Source of the DNA: an uncultured Candidatus Saccharibacteria bacterium | GTDB taxonomy: Bacteria > Patescibacteriota > Minisyncoccia > Phycocordibacterales > PALSA-1337 | Assembly: GCA_964412585.1 (NCBI GenBank) | Contig: CAYPPJ010000001.1 | Location: 149,334 to 213,333, forward strand | DNA length: 64,000 nucleotides | Direction of reading: 5' to 3' | Shown here: positions 3,717 to 61,776 of the stretch, one piece after another | Position numbering within the stretch: position 1 is the stretch's first letter | How the letters are laid out: the number at the start of each line of letters is the position of its first letter | Program-made: the position numbers and the translations under genes | Notes under the pieces: generated by a model | What the model was told of the DNA's origin: nothing | The model's database searches: none | Seen by the model: only the letters and a program-made list of their open reading frames with translations

Positions 3717-4484
3717 TTAGGCCGTCACCGCTTGAATTTTCTTTCGAAAAACGACGAGGCCAAGCGAAGCAAGGCCGAGCGAGGCAAGGTTTGAGCCGTT
3801 GTCAGGGACGGAAGAGCTCTTCAGCCCGACGTTGATGTTATCAAATTCTTGAACGAAGCTCTCGCCCTTATTGTACGCCTGAGCGAACACTGTGCGGAAT
3901 TGGGAAGTTAAGGGTCCCAGCGTCGTGTCACTGTAAACCGAATTCCCATTCAGAACGTAGTCAACCGAGCTACCGTTGTAGCTGATATCAATGTCGTATT
4001 GCCCCGCAACTGCAGAGCCACCAAGATTGACCCAGCCAATGTCACTGTCCCAGACACGCAGCGTCGAGCCAATATAGCCGAGGATAAAATAATCAGCTCC
4101 GACTTCGGTCCCAACATTCCCAGTGCTGCCCCAAAGGTCCGAACGTTGTCCCCCGCTAATCTGGTCGGACGTCACAAAGAGTTGGCCGGTAAGTTGCCAA
4201 TTGCCGTTAACCAGCGCCTGATGTTGCCGCCCTTGAGTGTTGTAAAACGTACTATTGTACGCCGGCGGACGATTGGCCTGGCTATCCGCGCTGGAGATGG
4301 TAATCTGCAGACGCCCTCCGACAGAATTGAAGCCCGCAGGCTCATACCGATCAGTCACCCAACCAGCAGACGGTGGACCTGTGAAGGTGTCCGTAAACGG
4401 GACGGCAAAGGAGGAATTTGAAGGGTTAATAACCGCCACAGCAAGTGCCATGGCGCCGATAATACCGACGTTAACGTGTTTCAT
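3717..4484 (-). CDS. secreted protein with PEP-CTERM-like (VPDSG-type) C-terminal sorting signal
   Basis: N-terminal signal peptide. The C-terminus is ...SSSVPDNGSNLASLGLASLGLVVFRKK, i.e. a VPDxG motif, a hydrophobic helix and a basic tail. It is GC-rich relative to its neighbours. Confidence 0.6.
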   Translation of the reverse strand: MKHVNVGIIGAMALAVAVINPSNSSFAVPFTDTFTGPPSAGWVTDRYEPAGFNSVGGRLQITISSADSQANRPPAYNSTFYNTQGRQHQALVNGNWQLTGQLFVTSDQISGGQRSDLWGSTGNVGTEVGADYFILGYIGSTLRVWDSDIGWVNLGGSAVAGQYDIDISYNGSSVDYVLNGNSVYSDTTLGPLTSQFRTVFAQAYNKGESFVQEFDNINVGLKSSSVPDNGSNLASLGLASLGLVVFRKKIQAVTA

Positions 4485-22967: not shown

Positions 22968-24170
22968 ATGCCCAACATTACTCCCGATATCGAAGCATTT
23001 GCACGCATCAAAGTACTTGGCGTTGGTGGTTCTGGTGGCAATGCAGTCAACCACATGATCTCCTCGAAAGTTCGCGGCGTTGATTTTATTGCGATCAATA
23101 CCGACTCACAGGATCTCCATCGCTCTCTCGCAAAGAAACGCGTTCATATTGGAAAAAATATCACCCGCGGACTCGGTACTGGCATGAATCCAGACCTTGG
23201 ACGACGTGCCGTCGAAGAGACTCGCGACGAGATCCAAGAAGTTGTTAAAGGCGCCGACATGGTGTTCGTAACCTGCGGACTCGGAGGCGGTACAGGCAGC
23301 GGCGCAAGCCCTATGGTCGCACGTGTTGCCAAGGAGCTCGGCTGTCTCACGGTCGGCGTTGTCACCAAGCCATTCTTCTTCGAAGGTCGCCAGCGTTCGC
23401 GCATTGCAGAAGCCGCTCTTGAGGATCTTCGCAAAGAAGTAGACGCCATCATTGTTATTCCGAACGATCGACTGCTTTCAGCTATCAGCAAGGAAACCAG
23501 CGTCAAAAATGCGTTTGCTATGTGTGATGAGATTTTGCGCCAAGCAGTCGAAGGCATCTCTGACCTCATTACCACACCAGGTCTCATCAACATCGACTTT
23601 GCCGACATTCGTACTGTTATGGAAAATGCCGGCTCTGCCCTCATGGGTATCGGTAATGCTTCAGGGGAAAACCGCGCTATCGAAGCAGCAAAGGCAGCCA
23701 TTAACTCACCACTTCTCGATGTGTCTATTACAGGCTCAAAGGGCGTCCTCTTCTCTATTGCTGGTGGTGAAGATCTCACTATGTTCGAAATCCAAGATGC
23801 CGCAAAGGTTATTACCGAGTCTATTGACCCTGAGGCCAAAATCATCTTCGGTACTGTCCGCGATGACAAGCTCAAGAAAAATGAAATCAAGATCACTGTT
23901 ATTGCGACTGGTTTTCCTGAGAGCAACACCGCTTCACCACGCACATCTTCACCTGTTTCGGCTGAGCCAACGATCGCTTCGATCATGAAGAGTGCCGCCG
24001 AAAAGGGTGACCGCGGCGAACGACCAGAACGAGGCAAGATTTTCAATACCATGTCTGACGTCAAACGAGACGCGGTTCCAGAAAAAAAGGTTGAAAAAGA
24101 AGAGAAGAAAGATGACGATGATGATTGGGGTGCGATACCGGCGTTTCTCCGAAGAAGTAAGCTTAAATAG
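22968..24170 (+). CDS. ftsZ: cell division GTPase FtsZ
   Basis: Tubulin signature GGGTGSG and GVGGSGGNAVNHM. Acidic/basic C-terminal tail. Confidence 0.95.
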   Translation: MPNITPDIEAFARIKVLGVGGSGGNAVNHMISSKVRGVDFIAINTDSQDLHRSLAKKRVHIGKNITRGLGTGMNPDLGRRAVEETRDEIQEVVKGADMVFVTCGLGGGTGSGASPMVARVAKELGCLTVGVVTKPFFFEGRQRSRIAEAALEDLRKEVDAIIVIPNDRLLSAISKETSVKNAFAMCDEILRQAVEGISDLITTPGLINIDFADIRTVMENAGSALMGIGNASGENRAIEAAKAAINSPLLDVSITGSKGVLFSIAGGEDLTMFEIQDAAKVITESIDPEAKIIFGTVRDDKLKKNEIKITVIATGFPESNTASPRTSSPVSAEPTIASIMKSAAEKGDRGERPERGKIFNTMSDVKRDAVPEKKVEKEEKKDDDDDWGAIPAFLRRSKLK

Positions 24171-24227: not shown

Positions 24228-25148
24228 ATGACCTACGACCTCGCAATCATCGGTGGTGGACCAGCTGGAGCAGCTGCGGCTGTCTATGCGGCCCGAAAGC
24301 GATTACGCTCAGTTTTCATCACCAAGGACTGGCTTGGTCAGAGTAATGTATCGGAAAAAATTGAGAACTGGGTGGGCACTATTGCTATTTCTGGCCTCGA
24401 CCTTTCGGAGAGTCTAAAAAAACACGCCAAGGCTTACGCAGATGGCGTCATTGATTTCAAAGAGAATGAACTGGCCACACTCATTACCAAAAATGACAAA
24501 TTTTTCACTATTACTACAACCAAAGGAAGTTACGAGGCGAAAACTGTCCTCATCGTTTCTGGAAGCAGTCGCCGAAAATTAACTGTTCCCGGTGCAGATA
24601 CCTACGAACATAAGGGGCTCACCTACTGTGCTTCATGCGATGGACCTCTGTATGCAGACCAAGACGTTGTTGTCGTCGGTGGAGGTAATGCAGGTTTTGA
24701 GAGCGCTGCCCAACTTCTTGCTTATTGTAAGAGTGTCACTCTCCTCTCTCGTAGCGAGTTCAAAGCTGATCCAGGCACAGTCGAGAAAGTCCTTAAGAAC
24801 CCAAAAATGAAAGCTATCGAGTACGCTTCACCAAAAGAGATCAAAGGTGGTCAATTTGTTACTTCCCTTTTATATACCGAAACAAAATCAGGAAAAGACA
24901 CCGAAATTCCTGTTACCGGCATCTTCGCAGAAGTTGGATCGGTGCCAAATACGAGTTTTGTAAAAGACCTCATCAAACTCGACAAGATTAATCGTGTCGT
25001 TACTGACCCAAAGAATCAGCGTACATCAGTCGAAGGTATCTGGGCCGCTGGAGATTGTACTGACGGACTCTATCAGCAGAATAATATTGCCGCAGGTGAT
25101 GCTGTGAAAGCGGTCGAGGATATTTATTTGTTTGTGCACGCGAAATAA
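24228..25148 (+). CDS. trxB: thioredoxin-disulfide reductase
   Basis: FAD motif IIGGGPAGAAAA and redox-active CASCDG. Confidence 0.85.
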   Translation: MTYDLAIIGGGPAGAAAAVYAARKRLRSVFITKDWLGQSNVSEKIENWVGTIAISGLDLSESLKKHAKAYADGVIDFKENELATLITKNDKFFTITTTKGSYEAKTVLIVSGSSRRKLTVPGADTYEHKGLTYCASCDGPLYADQDVVVVGGGNAGFESAAQLLAYCKSVTLLSRSEFKADPGTVEKVLKNPKMKAIEYASPKEIKGGQFVTSLLYTETKSGKDTEIPVTGIFAEVGSVPNTSFVKDLIKLDKINRVVTDPKNQRTSVEGIWAAGDCTDGLYQQNNIAAGDAVKAVEDIYLFVHAK

Positions 25149-25150
25149 GG

Positions 25151-25178
25151 TTGACACGGAATAACTTTTTGTTATAAT
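25151..25178 (+). promoter_or_regulatory. consensus sigma70 promoter TTGACA-N16-TATAAT
   Basis: Perfect hexamers 3 nt after the trxB stop. No plus-strand ORF follows. Transcription would run convergent into the mazF-like 3' end. Confidence 0.55.
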
Positions 25179-25185
25179 TCAAATA

Positions 25186-25300
25186 CAAATCGCCCGTTCG
25201 TGGGCAGCGCCATTCGAAAGAAAGGAGAAAAGTACCTTCGGGCCCACTCCGTGAAAACGGAGGCACAGAGACAGAAAATCCGTCAAAGTAAATCTTTGGC
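25186..25300 (+). ncRNA. candidate small structured RNA (unclassified)
   Basis: No ATG anywhere in the segment. Contains a GCCCG-UUCG-UGGGC tetraloop hairpin, a CUCCG-ugaaaa-CGGAG hairpin and a terminal 14-bp hairpin (GAAAATCCGTCAAAG/CTTTGGCGGATTTTC). The GTGGGC/GCCCAC pairing is mutually exclusive with the first hairpin. Confidence 0.35.
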
Positions 25301-25675
25301 GGATTTTCTCACTAGCTCAAACAGACTCGTCTCTAAGTAGCATATTCTTTTAGTTAGTCTTTTCGTATCAATAACTTTCAATTGAGTAATAACCGCTGTC
25401 GCTGTTTTTCCGTTTACTATTCCTATTTGGATACGAAAATGGTGCCTGAGCTGAGAGGAAGTCAGGGGCACGACGAGACACGTCGTAGCACTTAATCCTT
25501 TTAGAATTAGAACTGGCCGTCTATATTCACTACTTTTACCGTCATACTCGTCACCAAGATTAACACCAAGAGTACACCACCAAATCTCCCTCTCGTGATA
25601 ATATCCATGAGTTTTACTGTCGTAATGAAGCCGCTTTTTTTGTGTATCCCACCCATCAAAATCTTTTACTATCAT
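25283..25675 (-). CDS. MazF/PemK-family endoribonuclease toxin
   Basis: EIWWCTLGVNLGDEYDGKSSEYRRPVLIL...LVVPLTSS and IDTKRLTKRICYL align to MazF/EndoA by eye. Confidence 0.8.
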   Translation of the reverse strand: MIVKDFDGWDTQKKRLHYDSKTHGYYHEREIWWCTLGVNLGDEYDGKSSEYRRPVLILKGLSATTCLVVPLTSSQLRHHFRIQIGIVNGKTATAVITQLKVIDTKRLTKRICYLETSLFELVRKSAKDLL

Positions 25676-26226
25676 AGAGATTTTGATGTCTTGTAATCAG
25701 GCCCCACGCACGCACCCCACAATCCTTTTTTGTTCTTTTTTGCCTCTTTCTCAATTTCTCTAAACTCTCGCTGATGCTGATATGGTGTACCAAACGTATA
25801 TTCGCGCGCATATCCTTCCTTGAGTAGTTGCTCATTCACAAACACATCTCCTAGAAATACATACGCCAAATAGCGCCCGTATTTATCCTTTTCCTCTCTA
25901 TCTGGATTTAGTTTCAGTCTGACTGATTGTTCAGTGAGTAAATGCTTGGTTTCATCTGATGCTGCTTTACCATAACACTGGATCGGTTTGCGGGGATCGA
26001 CGGTCTCAGGCGTATCTATGCCGAGCATGCGAACCGTTTCAACATGACGTCCAATTTTGACATTGAATGTATCACCATCTTTGACCTCTGTGACCTGATA
26101 AAGTTCATTCTCATCTATAGACGGACCAGTAAACGCGCGAACAATTACATACCCAGTAAACACACACGTGCACACAATAAGCACGGTAACGACGACGAGA
26201 AACGTCGTGATTTTCTTGTATTCCAT
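25672..26226 (-). CDS. membrane-anchored thermonuclease (staphylococcal nuclease/SNase-like)
   Basis: Start set at the internal ATG at 26226 (MEYKKITTFLVVV TM anchor), because the longer ORF overruns tRNA-Glu. SNase motifs GDTFNV, VRMLGIDTPE, YGRYLAYVF. Its stop overlaps the mazF-like start by 4 nt. Confidence 0.8.
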   Translation of the reverse strand: MEYKKITTFLVVVTVLIVCTCVFTGYVIVRAFTGPSIDENELYQVTEVKDGDTFNVKIGRHVETVRMLGIDTPETVDPRKPIQCYGKAASDETKHLLTEQSVRLKLNPDREEKDKYGRYLAYVFLGDVFVNEQLLKEGYAREYTFGTPYQHQREFREIEKEAKKNKKGLWGACVGPDYKTSKSL

Positions 26227-26261
26227 TTTTCGTAATGATGACGTTGCAGGCGTCTTCCCAG

Positions 26262-26333
26262 TAGCCCTACGGGGAATCGAACCCCGATTACCGCCTTGAA
26301 AAGGCGATGTCCTAACCGTTAGACGATAGGGCC
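26262..26333 (-). tRNA. tRNA-Glu (TTC), CCA not encoded
   Basis: Acceptor GGCCCTA/TAGGGCT, D arm GTCT-AACGGTTA-GGAC, anticodon loop TTTTCAA, T arm CGGGG-TTCGATT-CCCCG. 72 nt. Confidence 0.85.
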
Positions 26334-26415
26334 AAACGTGTGTCAGTATCCTACCATTTTTTGAAAAAATGGCAAAAAATGCTAAGGTATAGCGGTTCAT
26401 CACCGCAACTACCTT

Positions 26416-30356: not shown

Positions 30357-30659
30357 ATGAAAGGATTTATTCAATTCATTCGAACACAAGGTGTCGTTGG
30401 CCTCGCTGTTGGTTTTATCCTCGGCAAAGCCGTCTCTGATGTTGTAGGGTCCATTGTTACCGATATTATCAACCCCATCATTGGTATCGCCCTTCACAAT
30501 TTTGGTGACCTCTCCGCACTATCACTTCATGTGCTTTCCGCCAACATTACTTACGGAAAATTCATCAGTATTTTGATTAATTTCGTGATCGTAGCACTCG
30601 TGGTCTATTACGGCGTCAAAAAACTCAAGCTTGACCGCCTTGATACGCCAAAACAATAA
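30357..30659 (+). CDS. mscL: large-conductance mechanosensitive channel MscL
   Basis: MKGFIQFIRTQGVVGLAVGFILGKA...IINPIIG. Two TM helices, about 100 aa. Confidence 0.8.
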   Translation: MKGFIQFIRTQGVVGLAVGFILGKAVSDVVGSIVTDIINPIIGIALHNFGDLSALSLHVLSANITYGKFISILINFVIVALVVYYGVKKLKLDRLDTPKQ

Positions 30660-30794
30660 GAGTGGCTGCGGAGGTTTAAAAACTGGATTTTTTCGTTATT
30701 TTTGCTATAGTTTGGGTGTTGCAGGAAATGTGATGGTTAAATGAAAATTTTGCACGAAAATTTTCCACGGCTTACGCCGTAGAAAATCTTTCGA

Positions 30795-30825
30795 CGCGAA
30801 TTTTCTTAGGAAATGAAAATTCGCG
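30795..30825 (+). promoter_or_regulatory. 11-bp perfect inverted repeat (CGCGAATTTTC-N9-GAAAATTCGCG) abutting and overlapping tRNA-Val 5' end
   Basis: Seen directly in the sequence. Palindromic GAAAATTTTC-like motifs also lie upstream (30741-30770). Confidence 0.3.
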
Positions 30826-30895
30826 CGGTTAGCTCAGTTGGTAGAGCATCCCCTTGACGTGGGGAGGGTCACAGGTTCGAATCCTGTATCGCGCA
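30823..30895 (+). tRNA. tRNA-Val (GAC), CCA not encoded
   Basis: Acceptor GCGCGGT/ATCGCGC, D arm GCTC-AGTTGGTA-GAGC, anticodon loop TTGACGT, T arm ACAGG-TTCGAAT-CCTGT. 73 nt. Confidence 0.85.
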
Positions 30896-30925
30896 CAGTC
30901 TATAGATACTTAAACTTTCATATTA

Positions 30926-31258
30926 ATGAATCAGCGAAGTGACATTTTGACCCGTATAGCTATCGCTCTTATTGTTTTAGCAATTTTTACTTTTATAAAT
31001 TACCAGTTCTTTTTTAGCAATTACCTCGACAGGGACGGGCTAACCATATACATGACACCACTCATCCTTCCTATGATGCTTTGTATTATCTACCCCAAAA
31101 AAGAACATAGGAATCTATTATTTATTGCACTTTCTATTCCGGCGATTGTGGTAACAGCAATGGCAACGCGTTTTCCAGATACTGGAGGACTTGTTCTCAT
31201 ACCATACACCTTAGTCCTATTTGTCATTTTTCTGATACTTGGACGTTTTTTAAAATAA
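30926..31258 (+). CDS. hypothetical membrane protein (3-4 TM)
   Basis: 110-aa hydrophobic ORF. No recognisable family. Confidence 0.45.
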   Translation: MNQRSDILTRIAIALIVLAIFTFINYQFFFSNYLDRDGLTIYMTPLILPMMLCIIYPKKEHRNLLFIALSIPAIVVTAMATRFPDTGGLVLIPYTLVLFVIFLILGRFLK

Positions 31259-61134: not shown

Positions 61135-61156
61135 CCATCGATATTAGTTTGGCCCA

Positions 61157-61190
61157 TAAAAAATCACCAGATTTCTCTGGTGATTTTTTA
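61157..61190. terminator. bidirectional rho-independent terminator (A-tract/stem/T-tract)
   Basis: AAAAAATCACCAGA-tttc-TCTGGTGATTTTTT. It terminates the 60883 gene on the plus strand and rpsC...rplE on the minus strand. Confidence 0.65.
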
Positions 61191-61197
61191 TTTGAAT

Positions 61198-61776
61198 TTA
61201 TTTCTTTTTACTCTCCTCCTCTCTCTTGAGCGGCATGCCAATATGTTCGAGAAATGCGAGAGTTGCCTTTTTGTCACGAGATGTGGTGACAAGAGTGATA
61301 GCAAATCCAAATACGTCCTTCAAATCTTCATCTGATGTTTCAGGGAAAATAGTGTGCTCCTTGATACCCATGGTGTAGTTACCCATCGCATCTACTGAGG
61401 TACGTGAGAGACCACGGAAGTCCTTGGTACGAGGAAGTGCAATGTGGATGAGACGATCCATAAACTGGAACATGCGTGGACCGCGGAGAGTCACCTGGTA
61501 TCCAACAGCATCACCCTGGCGCGTCTTGAAGGTAGCAATAGCTTTCTTTGTTGCACGAACTGCTGGCTTTTGACCAGTGATCTTTGCGAGACGATCTGCA
61601 ATAAGCTCAATCTTCTTTTTGTCTTTGACTGAACCGAAACCGTTGGAAATAACAGCCTTGAGGAGTCGTGGTGCTTGCATAGGATTTTTGAGTCCAAGCT
61701 TTTCCTTGAGTGCGGCGTATGATTCTTTATTGAGTTCTGCGACTGTTTTGTATTTCATGGTAATGGAAAATATCAT
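61198..61776 (-). CDS. rplE: 50S ribosomal protein L5
   Basis: NPMQAPRLLKAVISNGFG...ITGQKPAVRATKKAIATFKTRQG. Confidence 0.9.
   Translation of the reverse strand: MIFSITMKYKTVAELNKESYAALKEKLGLKNPMQAPRLLKAVISNGFGSVKDKKKIELIADRLAKITGQKPAVRATKKAIATFKTRQGDAVGYQVTLRGPRMFQFMDRLIHIALPRTKDFRGLSRTSVDAMGNYTMGIKEHTIFPETSDEDLKDVFGFAITLVTTSRDKKATLAFLEHIGMPLKREEESKKK

Follow-up and report, generated by a model that had tools for sequence, protein, structure and literature searches.

The DNA analyzed here is a 64-kb stretch, referred to as the window, and the feature under study is a small-RNA gene lying between trxB and a mazF-like gene. In the window, ftsZ (22968-24170, + strand) is followed by trxB (24228-25148, +, stop codon at 25146-25148), the mazF/pemK-like toxin gene of 130 amino acids (25283-25675, −; Pfam PemK_toxin), a gene for a membrane-anchored SNase of 184 amino acids (25672-26226, −, with its extent as called in L001) and tRNA-Glu (26261-26333). 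A mechanically called open reading frame (ORF) of 243 amino acids at 25672-26403 (−) is overlong, as the tRNA-Glu lies inside it, and the true SNase gene is the one at 25672-26226. The window lies in a genome of Patescibacteria of the Paceibacteria/Parcubacteria type, and the closest relatives of its TrxB all come from metagenome-assembled genomes of the same group.

A σ70-type promoter, TTGACA-N16-TG-n-TATAAT (25151-25178, +), begins 2 nt past the trxB stop codon. It scores 12/12 against the consensus and carries an extended −10 TG at 25170-71; it is the sole perfect match in the window, compared with 0.02 expected from shuffles. The small RNA (sRNA) predicted to start from it is about 128 nt long (25185-25312, +), its start at A25185 being deduced from promoter geometry and its 3′ end, after the terminator U-tract, being likewise predicted. 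The 127-nt stretch downstream of the promoter folds with −48.4 kcal/mol (z = −5.1). No ATG occurs within 25179-25312, and a mechanically called GTG ORF of 46 amino acids at 25200-25340 is not conserved. The promoter and hairpins at 25151-25312 are confirmed as a small-RNA gene. A preliminary description of this DNA had already reported the perfect TTGACA-N16-TATAAT after trxB, the lack of ATG downstream of it, a UUCG hairpin, a CUCCG/CGGAG hairpin, a terminal hairpin with a U-tract, an AAGGAG motif and an antisense overlap with the mazF-like 3′ end. All of these were found again at the positions given here and in the next two paragraphs, the terminal hairpin measuring 15 bp.

The core of the RNA (25228-25313, +), as delimited by the covariance model R1 described below, consists of a leader AAAAGU, a first hairpin (H1, 25234-25243), a second hairpin (H2, 25247-25262), an A-rich linker (25263-25273) and a terminator (25274-25308). 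H1 reads ACC-UUCG-GGC in the window, with an A·C pair at its base, and this degenerate copy had been missed in the preliminary description; H2 reads CUCCG-UGAAAA-CGGAG. The terminator is an intrinsic hairpin of 15 bp with a 5-nt loop; across the family, compensatory changes were seen at 13 of the 15 pairs. Read on the + strand, it closes the small RNA and runs into UUUUCU. Read on the − strand, it coincides with the end of the mazF ORF, and after it comes a U-rich tract that is complementary to the A-rich linker; the hairpin is therefore a bidirectional terminator shared by the two genes. It follows that the two transcripts would be perfectly complementary over about 45-50 nt, i.e. the hairpin and both U/A tracts. 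The antisense overlap with the mazF ORF covers 31 nt (25283-25313), which comprise the last nine codons, the stop codon and 1 nt. The 3′ arm and the loop of the terminator encode the conserved MazF C-terminus (RKAxKDxL before the stop).

An extra 5′ module precedes the core (25185-25227, +). Read from sequence and fold, it resembles a tandem duplicate of the 5′ module of the family and looks like a second, partly degenerate copy of leader, H1 and H2. Its parts are a leader ACAAAU (25185-25190), which begins 7 nt past the −10 box at the expected transcription start, a 5-bp UUCG hairpin GCCCG-UUCG-UGGGC (25192-25205) and a weak GAAA-loop hairpin (25210-25225), the 3′ arm of which explains the AAGGAG motif (25222-25227). 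The window promoter lies about 43 nt farther upstream of the core than in canonical members of the family. The module is also present in L024, one of the loci compared below, and absent from L025 and from the canonical members. The long-range GUGGGC/GCCCAC pairing, which the preliminary description had proposed as an alternative to the UUCG hairpin, does exist in the window, where the duplication of the 5′ module gave rise to it; its role as a switch was rejected since the pairing is not conserved and is absent from L025, the nearest RNA-bearing relative. In L118 (~1851-1970, −), a lineage unrelated to the window, an exact tandem duplication of the leader-H1-H2 module was observed, which arose independently.

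Metagenome contigs were scanned with an alignment of the MazF subfamily, and 80 mazF loci with 42-56% protein identity to the window MazF were obtained. The covariance model R1 was built from 26 metagenomic relatives, with the window sequence excluded. It matches 25228-25313 at full length (56.4 bits, E ~1e-9), which is the sole strong match in the 64 kb; a second match at 61153-61246 (−; 18 bits, E = 0.29) is probably noise. Conservation of the structure next to mazF homologs had been put forward in the preliminary description as a way of checking the RNA, and R1 indeed matches the strand opposite the mazF 3′ end in 80/80 metagenome loci. Inspection by eye showed the canonical layout, a near-consensus promoter and an RNA of ~80 nt facing the mazF 3′ end, in all 80 as well. 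The canonical RNA reads 5′-ACAAGU, then GCC-UUCG-GGC or GGC-UUCG-GCC, UC, a G+C-rich hairpin, an A-rich linker and the terminator, H2 being variable in length with a GNRA or UNCG loop. Three hairpins were recovered when canonical members were folded singly. In an alignment of 79 sequences, 97.1% of the cells are standard pairs, 20 of the 23 pairs are changed on both sides and all three helices covary. At the middle pair of H1, 41 sequences have CG and 38 have GC, and all five pairs of H2 covary. None of 500 shuffles reached the observed values, and in shifted registers the pairing fell to 40-60%.

The promoter is conserved together with the RNA. In 74 related loci the best −35/−10 pair scores 9.8/12 on average, with TTGAC and TAnnnT nearly invariant and the TG extension present in 39, while random positions in the same loci average 6.1/12 and only 0.2% of them reach 10. 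In 62/74 loci the end of the −10 box lies exactly 6 nt before RNA position 1, and because of this spacing to model position 1 the start is predicted at the A of 'ACA'. The R1 match overlaps the mazF ORF by exactly 31 nt in 72/72 related loci, the same as in the window. We also observed that RNA positions 5-7 form a start codon in 72/74 sequences (AUG 31, GUG 26, UUG 15, CUG never; e.g. L117, L104 and L166). The G of this NUG is the first base of H1 and no reading frame is conserved after it. The window RNA has no NUG at the equivalent position in either module.

The RNA corresponds to no family that we could find in Rfam 15. The whole window gave no relevant family match at gathering thresholds, which was also the outcome of the covariance scan suggested earlier. 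At E<=10 the region 24900-25700 gave only chance matches of microRNA and sRNA models to the terminator hairpin, and six canonical members gave no family match at E<=1. The 'pemK RNA motif', taken as a lead, produced no such match in the Rfam searches, and a literature search for it gave nothing usable. An identity as signal recognition particle (SRP) RNA, 6S RNA, tmRNA or a riboswitch was rejected on the lack of an Rfam match and of a same-strand downstream gene.

Eighty genome loci surrounding relatives of TrxB were used to follow the linkage of the RNA with mazF. Where TrxB identity is 82-94%, the trxB/SNase junction has either both the RNA and mazF or neither. In L022 and L023, the closest complete relatives (91-94% TrxB identity), the SNase gene abuts trxB and both the RNA and mazF are missing. 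L025 (82% identity) has the promoter, a shorter RNA and mazF, with compensatory changes in the second hairpin (CUCCG/CGGAG to CUCCAC/GUGGAG) and in the terminator. In L024 the RNA has lost its 3′ part and mazF its C-terminal two thirds through a single deletion. Nine of the trxB-relative loci have a mazF match, and the arrangement of promoter, RNA and terminator was recognized by eye in them, two being cut or deleted. In L021, L029, L030 and L043 a similar promoter at the same site precedes another kind of RNA, ~110 nt long and with three hairpins, and the convergent gene encodes a more distant homolog in the same mazF subfamily.

The module is not bound to trxB. In L061, L032 and L074, mazF lies elsewhere in the genome and is faced by a convergent promoter and small RNA, with a terminator abutting its stop codon. 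These three loci, L183 and L185-187 are unrelated contexts, in which the module is always convergent and shares its terminator with mazF. A minimal RNA class, consisting of the leader, H1 with a GNRA loop, 'UC' and the terminator, accompanies MazF proteins of the L074 type in five different contexts. An intact mazF was never seen without the RNA in the loci examined. At the level of sequence comparison, the RNA and mazF are established as a conserved two-part module which moves between genomic contexts.

Some loci depart from the simple pair. An orphan RNA copy with its promoter lies in L173 (2007-2400) beside a C-terminal mazF remnant (LKLQKAVRDRL) and a hicB-like gene of 79 amino acids. Three same-strand mazF paralogs are present in each of L136 (974-2428) and L152 (235-1760), a convergent RNA copy following two of the three in each. 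In L032 (2412-2963, −) a mazF homolog lacks its stop codon and the ORF runs through the whole small-RNA gene and its promoter, which adds ~50 residues. The trxB/SNase junction (25149-25710 in the window) is an insertion hotspot and is empty in L022, L023, L026, L027 and L031; in close relatives with an empty junction the trxB and SNase stop codons are 3 nt apart. L028 and L035 (~3919-4100) contain a different insert there, with ATACGAAT-like repeats and another convergent gene. In the window the insertion altered the SNase C-terminus (25672-25710, −), which ends in GLWGACVGPDYKTSKSL before the stop versus GLWGACH in L022.

The toxin-like protein itself is, by its profile matches and predicted fold, a true MazF/EndoA homolog. 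It matches Pfam PemK_toxin (PF02452) with 45.5 bits, against a cut-off of 23.1, and the profile of the subfamily matches Bacillus subtilis EndoA/YdcE (E = 2e-8). The AlphaFold2 (AF2) model is of moderate quality (mean pLDDT 69.5), and its best Foldseek matches in the PDB are all MazF proteins (probability 1.00, TM 0.55-0.7). R53-P54 is invariant and aligns with R25-P26 of EndoA, the PLTTS motif aligns with AITAQ of EndoA, and the catalytic Arg and Thr/Ser (equivalents of R25 and T48 in EndoA) are retained. The clade has a specific N-terminal extension of ~25 amino acids, KDFDxWNxxKK, which is absent from EndoA; the confidence of the AF2 model in this extension is too low for any role to be assigned. 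The clade comprises 1,626 clusters at 50% identity (E<=1e-10) and is abundant in Patescibacteria. Neither PADLOC nor NCBIfam contains a family that matches the MazF-like protein. IMG/VR viral contigs yielded no relative, and among deposited phages homologs were found only in Campylobacter prophages of the CJIE4 type.

A protein antitoxin beside mazF was sought and rejected. When all flanking ORFs of the 80 loci were clustered, no conserved neighbor family emerged apart from artefacts such as antisense frames of mazF or of the RNA; the largest real cluster covers 15/80. There is thus no MazE, and no MazE/PemI-like gene stands upstream or downstream of mazF in ~90 loci. The gene upstream of mazF varies by locus (SNase, a HAD-like gene or none). 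The expression signals of mazF are poor: a Shine-Dalgarno-like sequence precedes only 2 of 71 mazF genes, and the window mazF has none. A good −10 box lies <=15 nt before the start codon in about half of the mazF genes, which suggests that about half of the mazF mRNAs of the family are leaderless or near-leaderless. The start codon of the window mazF overlaps the SNase stop codon (ATGA), and the two genes are probably co-transcribed. Since mazF lacks a Shine-Dalgarno sequence and in many relatives has only a −10 box a few nt before the ATG, it is probably weakly expressed.

Homologs that include the N-terminal extension were found by tblastn on plasmids of Helicobacter, Nitratiruptor and Campylobacter and in CJIE4 prophages. 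The Campylobacter jejuni 81-176 plasmid pVir carries CJJ81176_pVir0047 (30634-31038; tblastn E = 3e-6), with no annotated protein antitoxin adjacent. From the sequence we predicted a convergent promoter TTGATT-N17-TATAAT with a start at 31118-31120 (−) and an RNA with three hairpins, the last of which is a terminator ending 5 nt from the stop codon. The layout on Helicobacter suis pSNTW101c_2 is as on pVir. A transcription start at 31119 (−) with a very high step height, 16164, has been published for pVir, and the sRNA CJpv3 (31119-31043, 77 nt), located between pVir0047 and pVir0048, was listed as 'Detected on Northern blot' (Dugar et al. 2013; PMC3656092, Tables S5, S12). The published start of CJpv3 matches the start predicted here from sequence. 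Transcript evidence for the RNA-MazF layout comes from this homologous Campylobacter locus only.

PMC10470494 and PMC7826846, in passages that refer to Shen et al. 2016 (Mol Microbiol 101:909), describe CjrA as an antisense sRNA which is the functional antitoxin of a pVir protein toxin, and assign it to type I; the same passages credit it with stabilizing the plasmid. Matches to cjrA in isolates without the toxin are also mentioned in PMC7826846. We observed CJpv3-like RNA genes without any MazF gene on pCJ419 (L189, NC_004997; 901-995, 93% identity to the pVir copy), and likewise on the small cryptic Campylobacter plasmids CP084081, CP048773, OY754861 and CP017864. On the small plasmids the gene is convergent on a Ser/Glu-rich ORF that follows rep. 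Such MazF-less RNAs could be anti-addiction elements or serve copy control. Their occurrence fits the report of cjrA without toxin and is thus circumstantial support for the equation of CjrA with CJpv3. In the region 25200-25330 of pVir (L188) a second sRNA, CJpv2, starts at 25268 (+) and an opposing start lies at 25295 (−), both just past pVir0033. The latter encodes a 144-aa protein with hydrophobic segments, and this locus is an alternative candidate for the cjrA/cjpT pair.

An RNA antitoxin is the economical reading of the two-part module. The promoter, the covarying structure, the strict co-occurrence and fixed geometry with mazF and the lack of a conserved protein partner make it likely that the RNA acts, in whatever mode, as the antitoxin of the convergent mazF. 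MazF would be toxic here and the RNA would neutralize it by a route that we infer. The preliminary description had offered a cis-antisense regulator, an RNA antitoxin-like element for an orphan MazF and an independent sRNA as separate candidates, and the comparative data support the first two of these together. We favor, tentatively and with slightly less than even confidence, an antisense route of the type I kind combined with a probable second function directed at the protein. The near-consensus constitutive promoter would keep the RNA in large excess. The RNA would pair with the 3′ end of the mazF mRNA, starting at the complementary terminator loops, and the duplex would strip the mRNA of its protective 3′ hairpin and/or its stop codon, via RNase III cleavage or non-stop decay. 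As long as the RNA was abundant, little MazF would be made; with falling transcription of the short-lived RNA, MazF would accumulate and cut cellular RNA. The conserved 5′ part (ACA leader, H1 and H2) would probably provide the second activity, for which direct binding of MazF is our leading guess. The antisense and the protein routes are not mutually exclusive and the RNA may use both.

Several points weigh against this favored combination. The complementarity is limited to two very stable hairpins, and a terminator common to two convergent genes often has no regulatory role. In class C, in the minimal class and in Campylobacter/Helicobacter the RNA overlaps at most the stop codon of the ORF or nothing of it, and masking of the ORF end is therefore not the general mechanism. 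Antisense action does not account for the conserved 5′ module. RNAduplex revealed no complementarity to the mazF 5′ region that was specific to cognate pairs (means −17.9 for cognate and −17.9 for non-cognate pairs, p = 0.48), and a second pairing site between the sRNA body and the mazF 5′ region, as in par, was rejected on that result. In the window itself H1 is weakened by the basal A·C pair and is missing from the minimum-free-energy fold. Finally, that CjpT is pVir0047 and CjrA is CJpv3 is something we infer ourselves and hold to be only moderately probable.

In the main rival reading the antitoxin RNA would target the protein, as in type III systems: the conserved 5′ module (ACA leader, H1, and H2 where present) would bind the MazF dimer and block its RNA groove, the RNA may be a pseudo-substrate and the shared terminator a mere compact gene arrangement. 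The module is conserved in sequence and structure though it has no complement in the mazF mRNA. Leader, H1 and 'UC' are common to the canonical ACAAGU-GCC-UUCG-GGC-UC and the minimal ACAAAGU-GCC-GNRA-GGC-UC classes, and tandem duplication of the module, seen in L118 and in the lineage of the window and L024, is reminiscent of the repeats in type III antitoxins. Moreover, MazF is an RNA-binding enzyme, the clade has an N-terminal extension of its own (~25 amino acids), and other classes of the family do without the ORF overlap. However, H1 and H2 are capped by stable tetraloops of generic kinds (UUCG, GNRA) whose sequence varies, and the length of H2 is variable too, which fits a structural or stabilizing role as well as recognition. 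The AF2 confidence for the extension is low, and the known type III layout is different, with repeats upstream of the toxin on the same strand. A recognition motif was sought by k-mer avoidance in mazF ORFs against synonymous shuffles; only generic palindrome and stop-codon effects emerged, none of which points to such a motif. We regard a purely protein-directed antitoxin as possible and on balance doubtful. The strict linkage and the conserved 5′ module, taken on their own, show a functional tie of an unspecified kind, and the RNA could thus belong to MazF without being its antitoxin, as a dedicated substrate, as cofactor or guide of a MazF-RNA particle, or as a trans-acting sRNA that travels with mazF. 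The NUG at RNA positions 5-7 (72/74) and the leaderless or near-leaderless mazF in about half of the loci, which hint at a link with translation initiation, are not explained by antitoxin models. Such a role is nevertheless unlikely: a MazF-family RNase whose catalytic residues are intact, and beside which no other inhibitor is encoded, needs a neutralizer, and an antitoxin is what the functional RNA antitoxin of pVir, as presented in the cited passages (PMC10470494, PMC7826846), offers as a precedent. The decay pattern, in which the RNA persists without mazF and an intact mazF is never seen without the RNA, fits an antitoxin too, as does the asymmetry between the strong RNA promoter and the weak mazF signals.

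The same NUG in 72/74 sequences and the 46-aa GTG ORF of the window (25200-25340) could be taken as signs that the transcript serves as a short mRNA and encodes a small peptide. This is highly improbable and the small-peptide gene was rejected on variable ORF lengths and shifting frames. ORFs starting from the NUG span from 2 to >25 codons, covariation in H1 changes MPSG to MASA and indels in H2 shift the frame, GUAA loops give a stop at codon 3 in L185 and L186, and the class-C frames differ between L021 and L029. The window modules have no equivalent NUG, there is no Shine-Dalgarno sequence, and the window ORF has no Pfam match. The least probable reading of all is the one which the preliminary description had named as its own counter-explanation, namely a bidirectional trxB/mazF terminator with a fortuitous promoter-like sequence. 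The terminal hairpin does work as a terminator in either direction, but the comparative data refute this reading. The promoter has no second perfect match in the window (0.02 expected) and is kept at a fixed distance in 74 loci, compared with 0.2% of control positions; covariation extends to two helices that are not part of the terminator; the RNA and mazF move together between genomic contexts; and the homologous pVir locus yields an abundant sRNA.

MazF is a textbook type II toxin, and databases label these genes 'type II toxin-antitoxin system PemK/MazF family toxin', whereas the clade loci examined pair with a conserved small RNA instead. That a small structured RNA, with a 5′ module which binds the toxin directly, took the place of the MazE protein throughout the clade is a conjecture which we put forward with some reserve. 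Should direct binding hold, the MazF superfamily would gain its first antitoxin of the RNA-protein (type III-like) kind, and the convergent non-repeat architecture of this antitoxin would add an antisense (type I-like) arm, making it a hybrid class. If the RNA is an antitoxin by any route, the 'orphan' MazF proteins of Patescibacteria and of Campylobacter/Helicobacter plasmids would be parts of complete systems and the type I/II/III classification would cut across one toxin family; a strongly covarying RNA family could then be added to RNA databases and used for annotating genomes of candidate phyla. The presence of up to three tandem copies in some of these tiny genomes raises the question of their role, e.g. 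in abortive-infection phage defence or in the stabilization of genomic islands. As far as we could find, the link between the RNA family and the MazF clade in candidate-phyla bacteria has no earlier description, and the family is absent from Rfam 15.

Among known systems, the type I pairs with a 3′-overlapping convergent antisense RNA are txpA/RatA and bsrG/SR4 of B. subtilis and par RNA I/RNA II with Fst of Enterococcus pAD1. Like the window pair, txpA/RatA, bsrG/SR4 and par have convergent transcripts that are complementary at their 3′ ends and a strong antitoxin promoter, and par even shares a bidirectional terminator. The window RNA is likewise antisense to the toxin transcript and overlaps it through the shared terminator, including the 31 nt of ORF. 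However, type I toxins are small hydrophobic membrane peptides, while the window toxin is a 130-aa soluble protein of the MazF fold. The window overlap is also limited to the terminator and, unlike that of par, is not complemented by a second pairing site at the toxin 5′ end. With the type III systems ToxIN, CptIN and TenpIN the window shares a protein endoribonuclease toxin, a small structured RNA (the antitoxin role of which is predicted in the window) and the lack of a protein antitoxin; ToxN is structurally related to the Kid/MazF fold, and an RNA module which is occasionally tandem (L118, the window) is a type III-like trait. The differences lie in the arrangement and in the toxin family. 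The type III antitoxin is a direct-repeat array upstream of the toxin on the same strand, with a terminator between them, whereas the window RNA is encoded by one convergent gene that has a promoter to itself; in place of a same-strand upstream array, the family shows only an occasional two-fold duplication of the 5′ module. Type III toxins belong to the ToxN/AbiQ families and the window toxin to Pfam PemK. Toxin family, fold and catalytic residues are those of the type II systems MazEF and PemIK, but the window clade has no adjacent co-transcribed gene of the MazE/PemI type, has the extra N-terminal segment and often has its own −10 box before the ATG.

Taken together with CJpv3 next to pVir0047, the cjrA/cjpT system of pVir is probably the single earlier precedent of an RNA-antitoxin partner for a MazF-family toxin. 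The CJpv3/pVir0047 locus and the window differ in several respects. CJpv3 has no likeness in sequence to the window RNA by eye, has no ORF overlap and ends 5 nt from the stop codon, and the host of the former is a conjugative plasmid of Campylobacterota while that of the latter is a Patescibacteria chromosome. What the window and the CJpv3/pVir0047 locus have in common is a homologous MazF with the N-terminal extension, no adjacent annotated protein antitoxin and, at the toxin 3′ end, a convergent sRNA with three hairpins, which is strongly expressed on pVir and predicted in the window.

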